The notes: generated by a model not told the origin, from the sequence alone. DNA of 64,000 bases from a virus (IMGVR_UViG_3300032135_000003:32001-96000), one strand, 5' to 3'. Numbered from the stretch's first letter, positions 4,331 to 14,440 are shown. Numbers and translations: made by a program.

Positions 4331-4427
4331 TGTGAGTGGCTAAGAATCGAACTCAGCTTCCATTTAGCACAATGTGTTTTTCATCATCTCGCTATGCTAA
4401 TGCTATCACCAATCAGCCACACTCACA
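4331..4427 (-). ncRNA. tRNA-like RNA with an enlarged anticodon arm
   Basis: Acceptor stem GTGAGTG/CACTCAC, D arm GCT-GATTGGTGAT-AGC and T arm CTGAG-TTCGATT-CTTAG. The anticodon stem TTAGCA/TGCTAA encloses 25 nt rather than 7. Confidence 0.65.
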
Positions 4428-5416: not shown

Positions 5417-6886
5417 TTAACTTACAGTCCTTGGCAGTTGTAGTTCTATTTCAATATGTTTTTTTAAATTGAGGGTTTTTTGGCTATCAAATCCAAAATT
5501 TTCCAGCATCCAAATAATGTAGTTTTTATCTTCTTTTATAACTTGTTTAACAGACTTTCCATTGTGTTTTCCAAACCAAAAGGTAGGGGTTTTATCAGTT
5601 GCATCATTATTAGGGTTTGCTGCAAGTTCTTCCATTTCCCTAAAAGAGTTCATTAGAGAGTCTTTAGTGGGCTTTATATCGGTCATAATAGGATAGTCAG
5701 AAAGTAACTGCCCAGAGCCATTAAACATACCCCAACCATAGTAAGGTATATCTTCAAAAGTAAGTTCCTCTATTCTACCAAATCTTTGCACATTACCACT
5801 GAAGTCTACTATTATGCAATCCTGACCCTCTGGATGGATTCTTACACCTCTTCCTAACTGTTGGTAAGCTAAGGCTACAGAAGATGTAGGACGACCCGTT
5901 ATAATAGCATCTATCTCTGGGTTATCATATCCAACTCCGAGTACATTTACATTTATTGCAACAGGGATATCTCCATTTGAAAAAGAGTCTACCATAAAGT
6001 CCCTTTCAGATACGGTTAGTTTACTATGGACAATTGCACTGTTAGGAATAGAGCCATATAGAAGTTCTGCCTCAGCAATAGAAGGAACAAAAATCAGTAT
6101 TCTTTTTCTACCTTCTGATTTAAGTCTTTTTACTTCTTCGACAATCTGATCGTTTAGACCATTAGATTTGTAATACTCTTTTTGAGAGTGTTCTGTATAA
6201 TCAGAACCTGCGGTATTTAATTTTAGTTCAGAAGTATCATTGGCAATAACTTTATATCTTAAAGGAGCCCAGTACTTATTATCTACCAGTTCTTTAATCT
6301 GAGTTACATGTGCTATTTCTCTAAATAAAGTTCCAAAAGTCCTGTTAATCATAACAAGTCTTGAACCACTCATTCCTCCTGTTAAAAAAATTGGAGTAGC
6401 AGTTAATCCTAAAACATTAGTTACTTTTAAACTCTTGATAAACTTTCTTATCTGGGAACCTATCTTAGTCTGTAAATGTACCTCATCTATAATAATATGC
6501 TTAAGCCCCATCTTACGAAGAGCTTCAATTTCTTTCTTTATAGAACCGATAGTTGCAAAGGTAACTTTAGAAACCTCATCACACCTTTTGAACTCACCAT
6601 CAATTTTAGTATAGTTATTACCATTTAGAGTTTTGGTTTTTAAAGAGGCGCAATAAATAGATGCTTCTCCCCCACAAGAAATGTATTTATGGTAATTTTG
6701 TTTAAGAAGCTCTTTAGAGGGTTGTAGTACAAGAACAGGTACAGTTAGTTGTTCTACTATCTTGGCTATGTATATACTCTTGCCTCCGCCTGTTGGAGCC
6801 ACTACAATAGCCTTTTTCTTAGGGGCTAGTAGCACCTTTAATCCAGCATCTACTCCTAACTTCTGATAATCTCTAAGTACAAACAT
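5417..6886 (-). CDS. Superfamily 2 (DExH) DNA helicase, RadD/YejH-like
   Basis: LRDYQ, Walker A APTGGGKS, IIIDEVH, GLTATP, motif VI QQLGRGVR and a C-terminal FWFGKHNGK module. Confidence 0.92.
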   Translation of the reverse strand: MFVLRDYQKLGVDAGLKVLLAPKKKAIVVAPTGGGKSIYIAKIVEQLTVPVLVLQPSKELLKQNYHKYISCGGEASIYCASLKTKTLNGNNYTKIDGEFKRCDEVSKVTFATIGSIKKEIEALRKMGLKHIIIDEVHLQTKIGSQIRKFIKSLKVTNVLGLTATPIFLTGGMSGSRLVMINRTFGTLFREIAHVTQIKELVDNKYWAPLRYKVIANDTSELKLNTAGSDYTEHSQKEYYKSNGLNDQIVEEVKRLKSEGRKRILIFVPSIAEAELLYGSIPNSAIVHSKLTVSERDFMVDSFSNGDIPVAINVNVLGVGYDNPEIDAIITGRPTSSVALAYQQLGRGVRIHPEGQDCIIVDFSGNVQRFGRIEELTFEDIPYYGWGMFNGSGQLLSDYPIMTDIKPTKDSLMNSFREMEELAANPNNDATDKTPTFWFGKHNGKSVKQVIKEDKNYIIWMLENFGFDSQKTLNLKKHIEIELQLPRTVS

Positions 6887-7000: not shown

Positions 7001-7975
7001 TTAAGACCTACTAGTACAAGGTGTAGCGTTTCTTGTGCCTTTTACATCTTCATTAATACACCAAGCTATGAAATCAAAGTCTAAATAAGGCAATGGCTTT
7101 ACTTTATCCTCGGTAGAAGCTGGGATAGGAGTAATAGTTTTCTCCATGGTATAGATTTTATTAATAGGAATCATTAGGGCGGCAGTTTCTTTTACAAGAT
7201 AACCTCGAATATAGGTGTACTTTCCTTGTACAAGTTCATCATTATGTAACTTGAACTGTTTGTATTCAACATAAGACATTTTCTTGATACGATCAAACTG
7301 TCTTTTTGTTTTTAACAACCCTTTTTCTTTAAGCTTGCGCTTCCAATAATCCCCTTTAGATTTGGCATTGGTGGTTGCCCCCCCTTTAAGAATTGCATAA
7401 CCACTATTAGATAAGATAACTTTATCGGTAATTTCAATCTTTTCACCAAATCTCTTAATATAAGACTTACTTGCCTTAAGTTGTTTTAGAGTTTTTGGGT
7501 CTTTTCCTTGTACTAATACTTCTCTCCGATGCCTCTTTTTTCTAATCATGGCTTCTTGCTTTCTTTTAGAAGAATGCAGCCTAACAGATAAACTATTATA
7601 TTGAGTATCTATTATGTTTTTCCCTATTTGTATAGGCACTAATTTATTATGATTATATTTTTCTTTTAATTTATTATTACCTAGTAATACAACATCACCG
7701 TTATTAAACGTGACAAGCCCCTCTTCTATTAAGAAGGGGACATATTTATGTATTGAATTTAAAGAAAGGTTGGTTTTAGCCCGTAACAAAGAGAATCCAC
7801 TAACAGTTTTGTTGTTTTTGGCTTTGTAGGCGTAGTATTTTACATCCTTATTACTGCGGGAAGATTTAATTATGGAGTAGGCGGCAATAAGTTTATCACT
7901 AGAAATACCCTCAGTATTTTCACCTATCTCATAGAGACGGTAATAAAGTTTAGATGGTATCTTTGCTACGTTCAT
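7001..7975 (-). CDS. Basic DNA-binding protein, possibly replication-initiator-like
   Basis: Very Lys/Arg-rich, with a wHTH-like segment (SLLRAKTNLSLNSIHKYVPFLIEEGLV). ATG 7975 (MNVAK) is preferred because ATG 8002 lies inside a terminator stem. Confidence 0.6.
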   Translation of the reverse strand: MNVAKIPSKLYYRLYEIGENTEGISSDKLIAAYSIIKSSRSNKDVKYYAYKAKNNKTVSGFSLLRAKTNLSLNSIHKYVPFLIEEGLVTFNNGDVVLLGNNKLKEKYNHNKLVPIQIGKNIIDTQYNSLSVRLHSSKRKQEAMIRKKRHRREVLVQGKDPKTLKQLKASKSYIKRFGEKIEITDKVILSNSGYAILKGGATTNAKSKGDYWKRKLKEKGLLKTKRQFDRIKKMSYVEYKQFKLHNDELVQGKYTYIRGYLVKETAALMIPINKIYTMEKTITPIPASTEDKVKPLPYLDFDFIAWCINEDVKGTRNATPCTSRS

Positions 7976-7980
7976 AATTA

Positions 7981-8093
7981 AAAATAAAAAACCCTTAGAC
8001 ATTAACGGTAGGATCTAAACTCTACGCTCCGTTGTCTAAGGGTTTACCGTTTTTACACGGTTAGTTTCTTAATTTGATTTAAGAGTTTAGATC
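7981..8093 (-). promoter_or_regulatory. Structured 5' leader (terminator plus competing pairing) upstream of 7001..7975
   Basis: The stem AAACCCTTAGACA/TGTCTAAGGGTTT (8045-7989) is followed by a U-run. The 12-mer at 8082-8093 is the exact complement of 8012-8023 in the loop. Confidence 0.6.
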
Positions 8094-8098
8094 AAGTG

Positions 8099-8129
8099 CA
8101 AATATACAACACTTTGTTAAACTGACAAA
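8099..8129 (-). promoter_or_regulatory. Bacteroidota sigma-A promoter
   Basis: Minus strand TTTG-N19-TATATTTG, a perfect consensus match. Confidence 0.75.
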
Positions 8130-8167
8130 ACAAATAAGTTAAAAATTTATATTTTTATTAACGTTAG

Positions 8168-8238
8168 AGAGCAGAGAGAGAATTGAACTCTCACATTTGG
8201 TTTTGCAGACCGCACCCCTCACCGTCAGGTTTCTGCTC
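8168..8238 (-). tRNA. tRNA-Cys(GCA)
   Basis: Acceptor GAGCAGA/TCTGCTC, anticodon loop CT-GCA-AA, T loop TTCAATT. Confidence 0.85.
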
Positions 8239-8243
8239 ATAAG

Positions 8244-8315
8244 TGGAATGAGTTAGATTTGAACTAACGACCATCTACGCTTCAAGCAGACACTCTACCC
8301 CTGAGTTACCATTCC
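8244..8315 (-). tRNA. tRNA-Phe(GAA)
   Basis: Anticodon stem TCTGC/GTAGA, loop TT-GAA-GC, T loop TTCAAAT, short variable region. Confidence 0.85.
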
Positions 8316-8348
8316 ATTAAAAGTAAACAAATCTGTTTACTAAATTAG

Positions 8349-8419
8349 CACTCCCCTAGAGACATGAACTCTAACTATACAGTTTTGGAGACCGATAGGC
8401 ACAACCTACGCTGAGGAGC
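8349..8419 (-). tRNA. tRNA-Trp(CCA)
   Basis: Anticodon loop CT-CCA-AA and acceptor GCTCCTC/GGGGAGT. The D arm and T loop (TTCATGT) are atypical. Confidence 0.75.
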
Positions 8420-8425
8420 AATTTG

Positions 8426-8497
8426 AGGGCAAGGAGGGAGTCGAACCCTCATAAACCAAATTAACAGTTTGGAGCTTTACCATTAAGCTACCTGCCC
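8426..8497 (-). tRNA. tRNA-Asn(GTT)
   Basis: Anticodon arm CCAAA-CTGTTAA-TTTGG and T arm GAGGG-TTCGACT-CCCTC. Confidence 0.92.
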
Positions 8498-8511
8498 ATA
8501 TATAAAAATTG

Positions 8512-8597
8512 TAGAAGAAAAGGGATTCGAACCCTTGGAGGCTACTAACCCCACACCCTTAGCAGGGGTGCACAATAAACCACTCTGTCACTCTTCT
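8512..8597 (-). tRNA. tRNA-Ser(GCT)
   Basis: Anticodon arm CACCC-CTGCTAA-GGGTG, long variable arm, T loop TTCGAAT. Confidence 0.92.
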
Positions 8598-8602
8598 AGT
8601 TG

Positions 8603-8692
8603 CGGAAGAAGTGAGACTCGAACTCACACGAGACACAATGCTCCTACAGTTTTCAAGACTGCTGCCCTTAGACCAACTTGGCTTATCCTTCC
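8603..8692 (-). tRNA. tRNA-Ser(TGA)
   Basis: Anticodon arm GCAGT-CTTGAAA-ACTGT, long variable arm, T loop TTCGAGT. Confidence 0.92.
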
Positions 8693-8703
8693 ATTAATAT
8701 TTG

Positions 8704-8788
8704 TGGGATAAGGAGGACTCGAACCTCCATTCCATAGCGGATTACCAGATTTACAGTCTAGCGCCTCTTCCAGCCGAGCAACCACCCC
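8704..8788 (-). tRNA. tRNA-Tyr(GTA)
   Basis: Anticodon arm CTAGA-CTGTAAA-TCTGG, long variable arm, T arm GGAGG-TTCGAGT-CCTCC. Confidence 0.92.
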
Positions 8789-8820
8789 AAATAAAAAAGC
8801 CCCACATTTCTGTGAGGCTT
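8789..8820 (-). terminator. Intrinsic terminator (attenuator) directly upstream of the first tRNA
   Basis: Minus strand AAGCCTCACA-GAAA-TGTGGGGCTT followed by TTTTATTT. Confidence 0.85.
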
Positions 8821-8843
8821 ATTGCTTTTATATATTCAGGGTT

Positions 8844-8927
8844 TTACCCCATCGTCATATCGCATACAGCCTCACCCGATCTATTAGACCAGAAACTAAA
8901 ACAGCTATTATACGAATTATTTTTCAT
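8844..8927 (-). CDS. Putative leader peptide of the tRNA array (27 aa, not in ORF track)
   Basis: MKNNSYNSCFSFWSNRSGEAVCDMTMG*, with A-rich start context AAAATAAATAAA-ATG. Codons 3-15 are all cognate to the downstream tRNAs. It contains GTGAGGCT, complementary to the terminator 5' arm. Confidence 0.85.
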   Translation of the reverse strand: MKNNSYNSCFSFWSNRSGEAVCDMTMG

Positions 8928-8991
8928 TTTATTTATTTTAAAGTCCACCACCAATGCTAATGAATAGCAGGAGACTGTTGTATTAAAGGTG

Positions 8992-9023
8992 CAATGATAC
9001 AACAAGTATTTCAATTACACAAG
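8992..9023 (-). promoter_or_regulatory. Promoter of the leader-tRNA operon
   Basis: Minus strand CTTG-N20-TATCATTG, with one mismatch per box to the Bacteroidota consensus. Confidence 0.6.
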
Positions 9024-9090
9024 TTAATGAGCTAAAAATTTATAATTTCAAAAGTTTACCACTTTTTATATTTAGTGGCAATTATTGGAT

Positions 9091-9117
9091 AAAAATAACC
9101 CCCTAACTAAAGGGGGT
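9091..9117 (-). terminator. Intrinsic terminator after 9158..9421
   Basis: Stem ACCCCCT/AGGGGGT followed by TATTTTT on the minus strand. Confidence 0.7.
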
Positions 9118-9157
9118 CTAATAATCAATTTAACAATCAAACTAACAGGCAATATTT

Positions 9158-9421
9158 TTAATAGTTCTCTGAAACTATATCTTCTTGGTCTGGCTTATAA
9201 CGAAAAGAGTTTAATAAAAAGGATTCTAACGTTCTAGCTGCTACTTGAATGGAAAGAGCTCCATTGGTTTTTTGGTGCATGCGAAAAAGGTCGAAGGTTA
9301 CTTCGGATATAAATTCACTGTTTTTTTCTATATAAGAATTTGAAATTAAGTTCTCACTAATATAGTCATCCCATATTAGCTCTTTAAATTCTTCTAATCT
9401 GTGGTAAATTTCATTTTGCAT
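9158..9421 (-). CDS. Hypothetical protein
   Basis: 87-aa ORF with its own promoter and terminator. Confidence 0.75.
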   Translation of the reverse strand: MQNEIYHRLEEFKELIWDDYISENLISNSYIEKNSEFISEVTFDLFRMHQKTNGALSIQVAARTLESFLLNSFRYKPDQEDIVSENY

Positions 9422-11713: not shown

Positions 11714-14440
11714 ATGTCTGTATACGTAGATAGGTTTATCAAGCAACACAAAGAGTATTTTAGGAGAAATCAGTCATTCATAGAAAATAATTCTTGGGAT
11801 GATTCAACTGAGTATTCAGATAGGTTGGAAGACTTAACTAATCAACTTGTACAAATTTCCGAAATAAAAACTAAAAAAGCAAGAGATAAAAAACAGGGGG
11901 AGTTAAAGAAAGAAATCACAAGTTTAGGAGACTCCCACCAAAAGAATAAAAAAGAACTGTTCACTCAAGAAAGTACATTGACATCTTCTATTTTAGGGAG
12001 ACTTTCGGCTTTTATAAAAGAGACGGAGAAAACTAATGATAGACAATTAAATAAAGTACAAAAATTTGTAGACTTCACTGTAGATATAATCAATCTGCAT
12101 ATTGAAAAATGTAATACTTATTTAAACTATAACTTAGATTTAGTTGAAGGAGATAATGATGAAGATTATGAAATAGAATATAGAGGTAAGGAAATAACTT
12201 TTCAAGATGATATATTTAAAAAGAAAATAGGAATAGAGGACACCCTAAACTCTTTAAATATAACAAACAGTATTGAAAACTTACAGATAGAATTCTTTAG
12301 GGATCAAAAGGCATCTATACCAATGATGGAAGTTTTGATAGAAAGGTTTCCAGATATAAAAGAGCTTACAGATAAATTAGAGATACCTACTGAGATAATC
12401 GACAAAGAATTTTTCATTTATAAAAACCCTAAAAAAATTCCTAGGTGGAATGAAGGAAAACATTACTGGGAACAAGACAAGGAAGTTTTTAAATTTTGGT
12501 ACAATGAATGGCTTAAGATAAGGTATGGATTTGAGGTAGATGGGTATTTCTTTCATCCATGGCTGTACTTCCACTTAAATTTTTTCAAAACCCCCATGCC
12601 TAGTAAGGGGGGAGGAGATAAAATAGGGAACCCGTTATTAAGAGACAATGAGTGGTATATAGCAGAAGCATTAAAATCAGTTACAAAAGAGGACGGGTAT
12701 TATACTAAAGCAGGGGTCATGCTTTATGGATCGAGAAGAATTGCAAAATCTACCTCGATGGCTTCAATATGTGAATGGAAAGCTACCATAGTAGCAAACG
12801 TCTCTACTGCAATCACTTCGGGATCAGAAGGTGACTTAGGAGAACTGACGCATAAGATCAGAACTTCTATGAATTATCAGCAACCCGCTTTCAAATTAAA
12901 TACACAAAAACAAGAGTGGTCAGGAGGTATTGTGGAACTAGGGTTAAAAGCTGATTCCCAAACACCAATAGAGCACTCTAGGCATACCATAAAAAATCTT
13001 GTTTCGGGGGCTAAAAAAGCTACACAGAAGACAGCAGGGGGAGCCCCAAGTGTTTACTTAATTGAAGAGATAGGAAAGTTCAATTGGGAGAAATCTTACT
13101 TAGCTGCACTACCCTCTTTTCAATCAGATTTTGGTCTTAAAACCACCATCATTGCTGTTGGAACTGGCGGGGAGTCTAGTTTATCAAACGATGCTATGAA
13201 GGCTTTATCCAACCCCTCTACCTTAAAATTTCAAGAAATGGATTGGGACATGTTAGAAAGCAAAATCCCAAAAGCTGCTATAACTTGGAAAAGAAGAAAA
13301 TTTGCACATTTTGTTCCTGGTCAGATGGGAATGAAAGATGGTTTTAAAAGAATAGAAAAAGGTTTTGGAGATTTTTTAGGCATTGATTCTAAAGAGTTAA
13401 ATAAAATTAGAATATTTCAAACAGATTGGATAAATAATACTGGGGTACTTTTAGCAGATAGAAAACTGGTTAGAAATGATAACTTAAAGTTACAACAAGA
13501 GAAAGTACAATATCCAATTGACCCTGAGGAGTGTTTCTTATCCGCTGAAGAAAACCCATTCCCTTCAATGGTTGCAAAAAAACATAGCGACCATTTAATT
13601 TCTATAGGAGAAGTGGGTAAGCCAGTAGACCTCTATAGAGATAACGATGGTAAGGTATGTTTTGAAAATAGTCACAAAGAGTATCCAATATTTCCTTTTC
13701 CAGGGGGACACCATGATTCGCCTGTGACTTTATATGAGTTACCCCCTGAATTTCCTGATGTTAACAATAATTTATATATCGCAGGTTATGACGGGTATAA
13801 GCATGAGCAGTCTGACGGGGACTCTTTAGGCTCTATTGTTATTTATAAAAGGATATTTACAATGGGTGAGTGGGACGATAGAATAGTTGCTTCGTTACAC
13901 ACTCGTCCAGACCCCCATAGTGATTTTCATAAAACTTGTTTAATGCTTTTAGAGTTATATGGTGCTAAATGCTTTCCTGAAAATGAAGACATGGATTTCA
14001 AAGTATATTTAGATAAGAAGTTTTTAACTGATAAATACTTAGTAAAAGGTTTCAATTTATTAGCAGATTTTGATTTAAATACAAATGGTAATAGGGAGTT
14101 TGGATGGCAACCAACTGCTAAGAATAAAAGAGCTTTATTAGGGCAAGCTATCAGGTACACTAAAGAAGAAACAGATACAAGAAATGAAGAGGGGGAAATA
14201 ATAAAAACAACTCTAGGTATACAAAGAATACCAGATTTGAAGATATTAGAGGAGATGATAAATTATAAAGAAGGTGGAAATTTTGATGGGATAACATCTT
14301 TTATGTCTGCACTAGCTTATGCTCACTGGTTAGATCAAAACTATATTTCTCCCGATGTGAGGAAAAAACAAGAAGAGTATATAAAGCCAAGAACTACAGC
14401 GTCAAGACCTTTTGGAGGCAAGAGATATAAACCCTTCTAA
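11714..14440 (+). CDS. terL: Terminase large subunit with a long N-terminal helical extension
   Basis: Walker A-like GSRRIAKST, Walker B VYLIEEIG, VGTGG, QYP..PEECF, and nuclease motifs YIAGYDGY and NFDGI. It lies before the portal gene. Confidence 0.88.
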   Translation: MSVYVDRFIKQHKEYFRRNQSFIENNSWDDSTEYSDRLEDLTNQLVQISEIKTKKARDKKQGELKKEITSLGDSHQKNKKELFTQESTLTSSILGRLSAFIKETEKTNDRQLNKVQKFVDFTVDIINLHIEKCNTYLNYNLDLVEGDNDEDYEIEYRGKEITFQDDIFKKKIGIEDTLNSLNITNSIENLQIEFFRDQKASIPMMEVLIERFPDIKELTDKLEIPTEIIDKEFFIYKNPKKIPRWNEGKHYWEQDKEVFKFWYNEWLKIRYGFEVDGYFFHPWLYFHLNFFKTPMPSKGGGDKIGNPLLRDNEWYIAEALKSVTKEDGYYTKAGVMLYGSRRIAKSTSMASICEWKATIVANVSTAITSGSEGDLGELTHKIRTSMNYQQPAFKLNTQKQEWSGGIVELGLKADSQTPIEHSRHTIKNLVSGAKKATQKTAGGAPSVYLIEEIGKFNWEKSYLAALPSFQSDFGLKTTIIAVGTGGESSLSNDAMKALSNPSTLKFQEMDWDMLESKIPKAAITWKRRKFAHFVPGQMGMKDGFKRIEKGFGDFLGIDSKELNKIRIFQTDWINNTGVLLADRKLVRNDNLKLQQEKVQYPIDPEECFLSAEENPFPSMVAKKHSDHLISIGEVGKPVDLYRDNDGKVCFENSHKEYPIFPFPGGHHDSPVTLYELPPEFPDVNNNLYIAGYDGYKHEQSDGDSLGSIVIYKRIFTMGEWDDRIVASLHTRPDPHSDFHKTCLMLLELYGAKCFPENEDMDFKVYLDKKFLTDKYLVKGFNLLADFDLNTNGNREFGWQPTAKNKRALLGQAIRYTKEETDTRNEEGEIIKTTLGIQRIPDLKILEEMINYKEGGNFDGITSFMSALAYAHWLDQNYISPDVRKKQEEYIKPRTTASRPFGGKRYKPF

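Follow-up and report, generated by a model that had tools for sequence, protein, structure and literature searches.

In a viral DNA stretch of 64,000 nucleotides (nt; positions 32001-96000 of the record IMGVR_UViG_3300032135_000003, here called the window), we found a minus-strand cassette in which a promoter-like box is followed by a 27-codon open reading frame (ORF), an intrinsic terminator and seven transfer RNA (tRNA) genes. It is the single cassette of this ~131-kb marine phage genome, whose whole record has 130,947 bases. We suggest, with a probability of roughly 0.85, that the cassette is a ribosome-mediated (leader-peptide) transcription attenuator controlling a phage tRNA operon, and that the tRNAs are probably made only when ribosomes decode slowly the codons that these tRNAs read. 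A preliminary description of this DNA had proposed an attenuator of this kind matched to the array, and every prediction it makes at the sequence level was borne out against relatives, while translation, stalling, read-through and the physiological trigger are what we infer from them. Four of the features that mark leader-peptide attenuators are present: a leader ORF, regulatory codons that match the genes behind it, a terminator before those genes and a suitably positioned antiterminator. The layout first described, with the coordinates of the ORF, the terminator, the antiterminator and a second terminator upstream, was confirmed on the minus strand, and the parts of the control region are these:

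8992..9022, minus strand: promoter-like region of Bacteroidota type, with TTG at 9022-9020, a 20-nt spacer and the -7-like box TATCATTG at 8999-8992.
8928..8991, minus strand: 5' untranslated region (UTR), an A-rich stretch preceding the ATG.
8844..8927, minus strand: leader ORF of 27 codons plus TAA, ATG at 8927, with homologous ORFs at the equivalent position in relatives.
8883..8921, minus strand: sensor run, codons 3-15 of the leader, NNSYNSCFSFWSN, 13 consecutive codons in which all seven tRNAs are covered.
8867..8876, minus strand: antiterminator strand (segment 2), GTGAGGCT at 8875-8868, complementary to the terminator 5' arm.
8819-8812, minus strand: terminator 5' arm (segment 3), AGCCTCAC, the exact complement of GTGAGGCT.
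8789..8820, minus strand: intrinsic terminator of the cassette, a hairpin of 10 pairs (8820-8797) and a T-run to 8789, abutting tRNA-Tyr.

The region 8992..9022 presumably works as a promoter, and it is near-identical in the relative L015 in an alignment with the window, with divergent flanks. Translation of the leader may also begin farther upstream, at an alternative in-frame TTG or GTG. A small hairpin in the 5' UTR of the window was dropped from consideration, being not conserved in L015.

In the proposed mechanism, the host RNA polymerase would start at the promoter-like box and transcribe the short leader, and a ribosome would translate the 27-codon ORF, whose codons 3-15 are those read by the seven downstream tRNAs. 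Under fast decoding, the ribosome on codons ~15-25 would cover 8876-8867 at the time when the terminator is transcribed; the hairpin 8820-8797 would then form and transcription would end one base before tRNA-Tyr. If any codon of the run were slow from scarcity of its charged tRNA, the ribosome would lag inside the run, 8876-8867 would pair with 8819-8812, the terminator would be blocked and the seven tRNA genes would be transcribed. Accumulation of the tRNAs would speed decoding and restore termination. Since its products would relieve the stall, the circuit would be a negative feedback loop that supplies the tRNA set on demand.

The sensor run fits the array completely. All 13 codons are read by the downstream tRNAs, and a codon tally upheld the earlier claim that codons 3-15 are limited to the tRNAs of the array and cover all seven isoacceptors, each tRNA being represented by 1-4 codons in the leader. 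An AT-rich pseudo-ORF could in principle have come to lie beside a terminator by chance, as Asn, Tyr, Phe and Ser codons are frequent in AT-rich frames and runs of 8-11 codons occur elsewhere in the window. However, the leader run is the longest of its codon set in the six frames of the 64-kb window, the sole one of 13 codons and the sole one covering all seven codon boxes. Only ~0.01-0.03 runs this long are expected by chance per window, and none of 60 simulated windows had a run with all seven boxes. This simulation, together with the permutation and frame tests given below, refutes chance juxtaposition, whose probability we consider practically nil.

The seven tRNA genes lie in the order given in the preliminary description (Tyr, Ser, Ser, Asn, Trp, Phe, Cys), and all were called by ARAGORN, which was run at its default and at a relaxed 90% threshold:

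8703..8788, minus strand: tRNA-Tyr (GTA), found by default ARAGORN, Rfam and relaxed ARAGORN.
8602..8692, minus strand: tRNA-Ser (TGA), found by default ARAGORN, Rfam and relaxed ARAGORN.
8511..8597, minus strand: tRNA-Ser (GCT), found by default ARAGORN, Rfam and relaxed ARAGORN.
8425..8497, minus strand: tRNA-Asn (GTT), found by default ARAGORN, Rfam and relaxed ARAGORN.
8348..8419, minus strand: tRNA-Trp (CCA), divergent, found by ARAGORN at the relaxed threshold only, with covariation among phage homologues.
8243..8315, minus strand: tRNA-Phe (GAA), found by default ARAGORN, Rfam and relaxed ARAGORN.
8167..8238, minus strand: tRNA-Cys (GCA), found by the Rfam tRNA model (37.5 bits) and by ARAGORN at the relaxed threshold.

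Default ARAGORN thus detects 5 of the genes, Rfam adds Cys and not Trp, and the 90% threshold recovers 7/7. The tRNA-Trp has an unusual D arm and a deviant T-loop (TTCATGT); after being missed by default ARAGORN and Rfam, it was accepted because of the relaxed ARAGORN call and of the covariation in the phage Trp-CCA family, which includes the window gene and shows compensatory changes at 11 of 15 stem pairs. The Trp and Cys genes missing from the default calls were correctly predicted by the codon roster of the leader. Outside the array, the Rfam tRNA model, which itself misses Trp, found no tRNA genes in the whole 130,947-base record. Relaxed ARAGORN also reported a 96-nt tRNA-like gene with an abnormal anticodon loop on the minus strand of the window (4331-4426), 3.7 kb from the array.

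By DNA searches, the tRNA block was also found in Cellulophaga phages of unrelated families, namely phi10:1 (Assiduviridae), phi4:1 (Lightbulbvirus), and Calle and phi38:1 (Pervagoviridae), and in metagenomic contigs. The tRNA-Tyr of the window is 85-89% identical to those of phi10:1 and phi4:1, the only matches in IMG/VR to an exact 23-mer of this gene, which had no match in bacterial genomes. Additional loci were collected from IMG/VR and metagenomes with a tRNA-Cys pattern; in bacterial metagenome-assembled genomes this pattern matched three contigs, none of them with a tRNA array (0/3). For phi10:1, the GenBank annotation lists 2 of its 5 tRNAs.

This tRNA block also has the cassette in front of it in phi4:1, phi10:1, Calle and phi38:1. 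Ahead of tRNA-Tyr, each of these phages has a short ORF that begins with ATG and in which Asn, Ser, Tyr, Cys, Phe and Trp codons abound; residues are shuffled from phage to phage while the composition is kept, and a strong terminator abuts the first tRNA. Larger arrays in relatives consist of three blocks, each with its own cassette. The survey of relatives that had been proposed as a check, looking for short ORFs and terminators before tRNA clusters and for co-variation between leader codons and anticodons, found both the cassettes and leader codons that track the blocks.

The tracking follows individual genes as they move or disappear. Behind the leader of L008 and L009 lie Tyr, Leu-TAA, Ser, Ser, Trp, Phe and Cys genes, with the Asn gene upstream of the leader; TTA/TTG codons occur two or three times in the run of these leaders, and Asn codons are absent from it. 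The Asn gene is absent from phi10:1, as is Asn from its run. The leaders before the block Pro-Glu-Gln-His-Leu-Arg(ACG) are composed of Leu, His, Gln, Arg (CGN), Glu and Pro codons, and those before the block Ala-Lys-Ile-Gly-Met-Asp-Thr-Val-Arg(TCT) of codons for its own residues, with Arg as AGA. Where Leu-TAA belongs to the Pro block (phi4:1, phi38:1 and L007), the Pro-block leader uses TTA plus CTN; where it has been relocated to the Tyr block (L008 and L009), the Pro-block leader retains CTN only. With Asn in the Ala block (L008), the Ala-block leader has three Asn codons. More distant contigs with unrelated groupings follow the same pattern: in L014, QLQQLLSLL stands before Leu/Gln/Met genes and VNMNCNNDMD before Asp/Asn/Cys/Met genes; in L031, QNFWQPCF stands before Pro/Phe/Trp/Gln/Cys genes; and in L024, FLSYLYLSFSCLS stands before Tyr/Leu/Phe/Cys/Ser genes, Trp and Asn genes being both absent.

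We tallied this over 30 non-identical leaders, scoring codons 2-17 against the block of each leader. The leader set was gathered by an ATG-only search, and 29 of the 30 begin with ATG; the block A leader of L007, which opens with GTG, and the Ala-block cassette of phi4:1, without an ATG ORF, stand outside it. The match to the own block was 0.62, against 0.27 +/- 0.04 when blocks were permuted, and none of 20,000 permutations reached 0.62. For 179 of 182 block tRNAs, the own leader has a matching codon. In the other two frames the match fell to 0.16 and 0.18, the ATG frame being the best in 29/30 leaders. In split codon boxes, leaders use the own box 29 times and the other box 11 times, and these exceptions are due partly to mis-called tRNAs. 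The p-values overstate independence, since the leader sequences are related, and the argument rests rather on independent events: three block types, two tRNA gene relocations, one gene loss and several unrelated groupings.

These data also bear on two other explanations of the small ORF. It could be a gene for a functional micropeptide, with the hairpin as a constitutive leaky terminator or processing signal and the codon match as a by-product; its position is conserved, and many small ORFs of phages are real genes. A selected peptide does not agree, however, with homologues in which residue order is shuffled and codon composition follows the tRNA set down to synonymous boxes, nor with L008 and L009, where the 3' half is conserved at the RNA level across a frame shift. 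Alternatively, the leader could be an untranslated RNA that binds tRNAs through codon-like triplets, as a multi-specifier riboswitch similar to a T-box, with the ORF incidental. The element is placed as T-box leaders are and ends in a terminator/antiterminator pair, but the triplets match in the ATG frame only, the ATG start is nearly universal in the set (itself drawn from the ATG-only search), and the fixed distance from the run to the antiterminator fits a ribosome footprint. Rfam gave no T-box match (stem I with specifier loop, T-box sequence) at E <= 1 in 7900-9400, and no other match barring a weak one to Phe_leader (RF01859), at 26 bits against a cut-off of 55 (E = 0.11), which we rejected as a resemblance in layout only. 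We regard the riboswitch as very improbable and the micropeptide as slightly more so.

The competing pairings expected of an attenuator switch are predicted as well. In the window, the terminator hairpin 8820-8797 has -14.8 kcal/mol, its 3' arm GTGGGGCT pairing with the 5' arm AGCCTCAC via one G-U pair, and the competing duplex 8876-8867 : 8820-8811 has -15.5 kcal/mol (z = -4.1 against dinucleotide shuffles). Terminators of -10 to -19 kcal/mol, ending <=12 nt before the first tRNA, were present in 16/16 cassettes first examined, over which the z-scores of the 5'-arm partner varied from -0.7 to -4.4 against the same kind of shuffles. In 14/16 of these and in 11/13 further cassettes, the 5' arm finds its best partner at codons ~16-22, right after the run. 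The exceptions are L008_A (codons 13-16), phi38_B (23-26), the Pro-block leader of L015 (14-16) and the long ORF of L014 (37-41), and in all but L008_A the partner is still 3' of its own run.

The arm sequences are wholly different between lineages, and the partner strand differs along with the arm. L015, the nearest relative, has almost the same promoter, UTR and run as the window, while the antiterminator, 5' arm and 3' arm pass from GTGAGGCT, AGCCTCAC and GTGGGGCT in the window to ATAAGGCT, AGCCTTAT and GTAGGGCT, respectively. Judging from the alignment, this joint change of three segments is compensatory.

Folding with and without a ribosome footprint had also been proposed as a check. In a co-transcriptional model, where the transcript is folded before the 3' arm exists and the ribosome is masked at each codon, an A site at any codon of the run leaves the 5' arm sequestered (0.6-1.0), and the arm is freed once the ribosome front is beyond the run end. 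The switch point falls at the run end in all of the first 16 cassettes and in the 13 further ones; in the long ORF of L014, both run and switch point are near codon 35. With a footprint-only mask, the window terminates only with the ribosome on codons ~15-25, and thus the twelve codons after the run would be the time window for termination.

Several observations weigh against the attenuator. Equilibrium folds of the complete leader favour the terminator in many cassettes at any ribosome position, and therefore the switch must be kinetic; the trp attenuator behaves likewise, its equilibrium fold favouring the terminator and its decision being kinetic. The equilibrium probability of a complete terminator as a function of ribosome position gave mixed results and was replaced by the co-transcriptional model. 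An anti-antiterminator (1:2) is not clear in the window, where the naked truncated transcript already forms the antiterminator, although the full-length minimum free energy fold of the leader shows pairing of the 1:2 type; clear 1:2 behaviour is seen in some relatives (phi4:1 C, L008 A and C, L011 C). With 1-4 codons per tRNA, compared with the tandem runs of classical leaders, the sensitivity to loss of a single tRNA is uncertain. A few mismatches of content add to this: phi10:1 lacks a Ser-GCT gene and yet retains one AGT codon, and a Thr codon is conserved in block C leaders. In L007, L008, L009 and L025 this Thr lies inside the run (Leu-His-Thr-Gln), before a block with no Thr gene, and most leaders open with Met-Lys-Thr; the conserved Thr may be needed for translation initiation or pausing. 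Finally, no terminator is recognisable in the window between tRNA-Cys and the next gene, a 333-aa ORF at 8002-7001, and hence read-through may continue into it. Directly 3' of tRNA-Cys, on the minus strand at 8128-8101, a strong promoter-like site (TTGTCA, 16 nt, TATATT, containing TATATTTG) precedes this ORF.

The same architecture could respond to a different signal. Rather than tRNA loss caused by nucleases, the cassette might read general amino-acid or translation status (charging, late ribosome availability) and tune tRNA supply to translational demand, without being a counter-defence sensor. A stalled ribosome reports slow decoding only, whatever the cause, and the leaders on all three blocks of relatives cover nearly all amino acids, which looks like general homeostasis; moreover, no tRNA-nuclease gene or target was identified in the present analysis. 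On the other hand, the tracking of codon boxes (Leu TTR versus CTN, Arg CGN versus AGR) argues that isoacceptors would be sensed, not amino acids as such. Circumstantial evidence in the same direction comes from a metallophosphoesterase (PF00149, 46 bits) and an RNA ligase (PF09414, 48 bits) encoded by the same phage genome, 463 bases apart on one strand (G000:C1:115724-117877; L035:724-2877, minus). They form a possible RNA-repair pair, such a pairing being known from the tRNA repair of T4, and would be compatible with tRNA damage being relevant to this phage. We take general status to be a real possibility, somewhat short of an even chance. Host shut-off, high demand at late stages and tRNA-cleaving defences are candidates for lowering the tRNAs in nature.

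More tentatively, the cassettes could be at once self-regulating, exchangeable tRNA modules and isoacceptor-resolved alarms for depletion by host defences that target tRNAs, which we hold to be rather doubtful, below the general-status explanation. Units of promoter, test ORF, switch and tRNA block would then be shared among unrelated phage families and be split roughly into readers of U-codons, C-codons and A/G-codons. If this were true, a phage would replace exactly the tRNA class under attack, and the phage of the window would retain only the module that its hosts attack most.

The mechanism that we propose for the phage cassette is of the trp/his/ilv type and would come closest to the multivalent leaders of ilvGMEDA (Ile/Leu/Val) and thr (Thr/Ile), which belong with trpL, hisL, pheL and leuL among the known leader attenuators. 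As in the ilvGMEDA and thr leaders, a short ORF rich in regulatory codons is followed by a terminator and by an overlapping antiterminator that depends on ribosome position (here predicted), and one leader would sense several amino acids. Unlike the enterobacterial leaders, which regulate biosynthetic enzymes and have long tandem runs, the phage leader stands before tRNA genes and represents seven isoacceptors with 1-4 codons each. Its codon roster is the gene roster of its operon, so that the product itself would relieve the stall, and it is phage-borne, in a Bacteroidota-type promoter context and without sequence homology to those leaders, as the low score of Phe_leader indicates. In purpose, the closest systems would be the pheST attenuator and T-boxes. 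The pheST (pheM leader) attenuator of E. coli controls phenylalanyl-tRNA synthetase; there too a leader peptide attenuates a component of the decoding machinery in response to charged tRNA supply, but a single amino acid is sensed and a synthetase, rather than tRNAs, is regulated. T-box riboswitches are similar in having a leader RNA whose terminator and antiterminator read tRNA status and control translation-related genes. They differ in binding one uncharged tRNA directly (specifier codon plus T-box sequence) without a ribosome, whereas the reader in the phage cassette would be a frame-specific ORF, with no match to T-box models.

In full-text searches that paired leader peptides or attenuation with tRNA genes, arrays or clusters of phages, we found no published account of leader-peptide control of tRNA genes, and the transcriptome paper of phi38:1 has no discussion of phage tRNA gene regulation (PMC5335546). 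Both the regulation of phage tRNA genes and the reasons for the particular sets that phages carry are open questions, and phage tRNAs can neutralise tRNA-cleaving defences (PMC11464382, PMC11555353). A leader listing the tRNAs of its operon would be a direct multi-input sensor of decoding capacity with feedback built in, and would extend attenuation from amino-acid supply to the tRNA pool itself. The idea can be tested now, because relatives with cassettes include cultured Cellulophaga phages and an RNA-seq series of phi38:1 infection is published (PMC5335546). In practice, the leader codon roster could predict which tRNAs share one transcription unit and could reveal divergent tRNA genes missed by standard tools, such as Trp and Cys here.

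The transcription context varies among relatives. A Bacteroidota -7 box (TAnnTTTG) stands 4-30 nt ahead of the ATG in most homologous leaders. In many relatives, among them L006:4290-4310, L008:3545-3566, L009:7745-7766 and L011:2282-2303, a box of this type ends 4-5 nt before the ATG, which would make their leader mRNAs leaderless or almost leaderless; the window differs from them by its 5' UTR of ~60 nt. The promoter is absent before the Tyr-block leader of L008 and L009, which would act there as an internal attenuator behind tRNA-Met. Control by an intrinsic terminator agrees with the reported dependence of phi38:1 on host RNA polymerase (PMC5335546).

Upstream of the cassette, the window has two further features:

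9087..9118, minus strand: intrinsic terminator of the upstream ORF, a hairpin of 8 pairs (9118-9097) followed by a T-rich tail.
9421-9158, minus strand: 87-aa ORF, closed by the terminator 9118-9097 and its T-run.

The terminator at 9087..9118 would insulate the cassette from transcription arriving from upstream. Farther away, the cassette is flanked by a minus-strand replication module (helicase, 5417-6886) and a plus-strand packaging module (large terminase, 11714-14440).

The three blocks of larger arrays sort roughly by the first letter of the codons (L005, L006, L007, L008, L009 and L012). Codons that start with U are read by the Tyr block (Phe, Ser-UCN, Tyr, Cys, Trp, and Leu-UUR in L008/L009), which also has Asn and Ser-AGY; those that start with C are read by the Pro block, which also includes Glu; and those that start with A or G are read by the Ala block. 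Shared classes of position-37 modification or the origin of the modules may explain this sorting. In L011 (3328-3340), tRNA-Ile is directly followed by Ser-TGA, and this locus has neither the Tyr-block leader and terminator, nor the Tyr and Leu genes, nor the Ala-block genes after Ile (Gly to Met), as if a deletion had joined two blocks and placed both behind the Ala-block leader. L012 (4722-5280) and L007 (6636-7270) carry, between the Tyr block and the Pro-block cassette, a gene for a Lys/Arg-rich, very basic protein; such a protein embedded in the tRNA region has 111 aa in L007 and 113 aa in Calle, where it is annotated as 'structural protein'.

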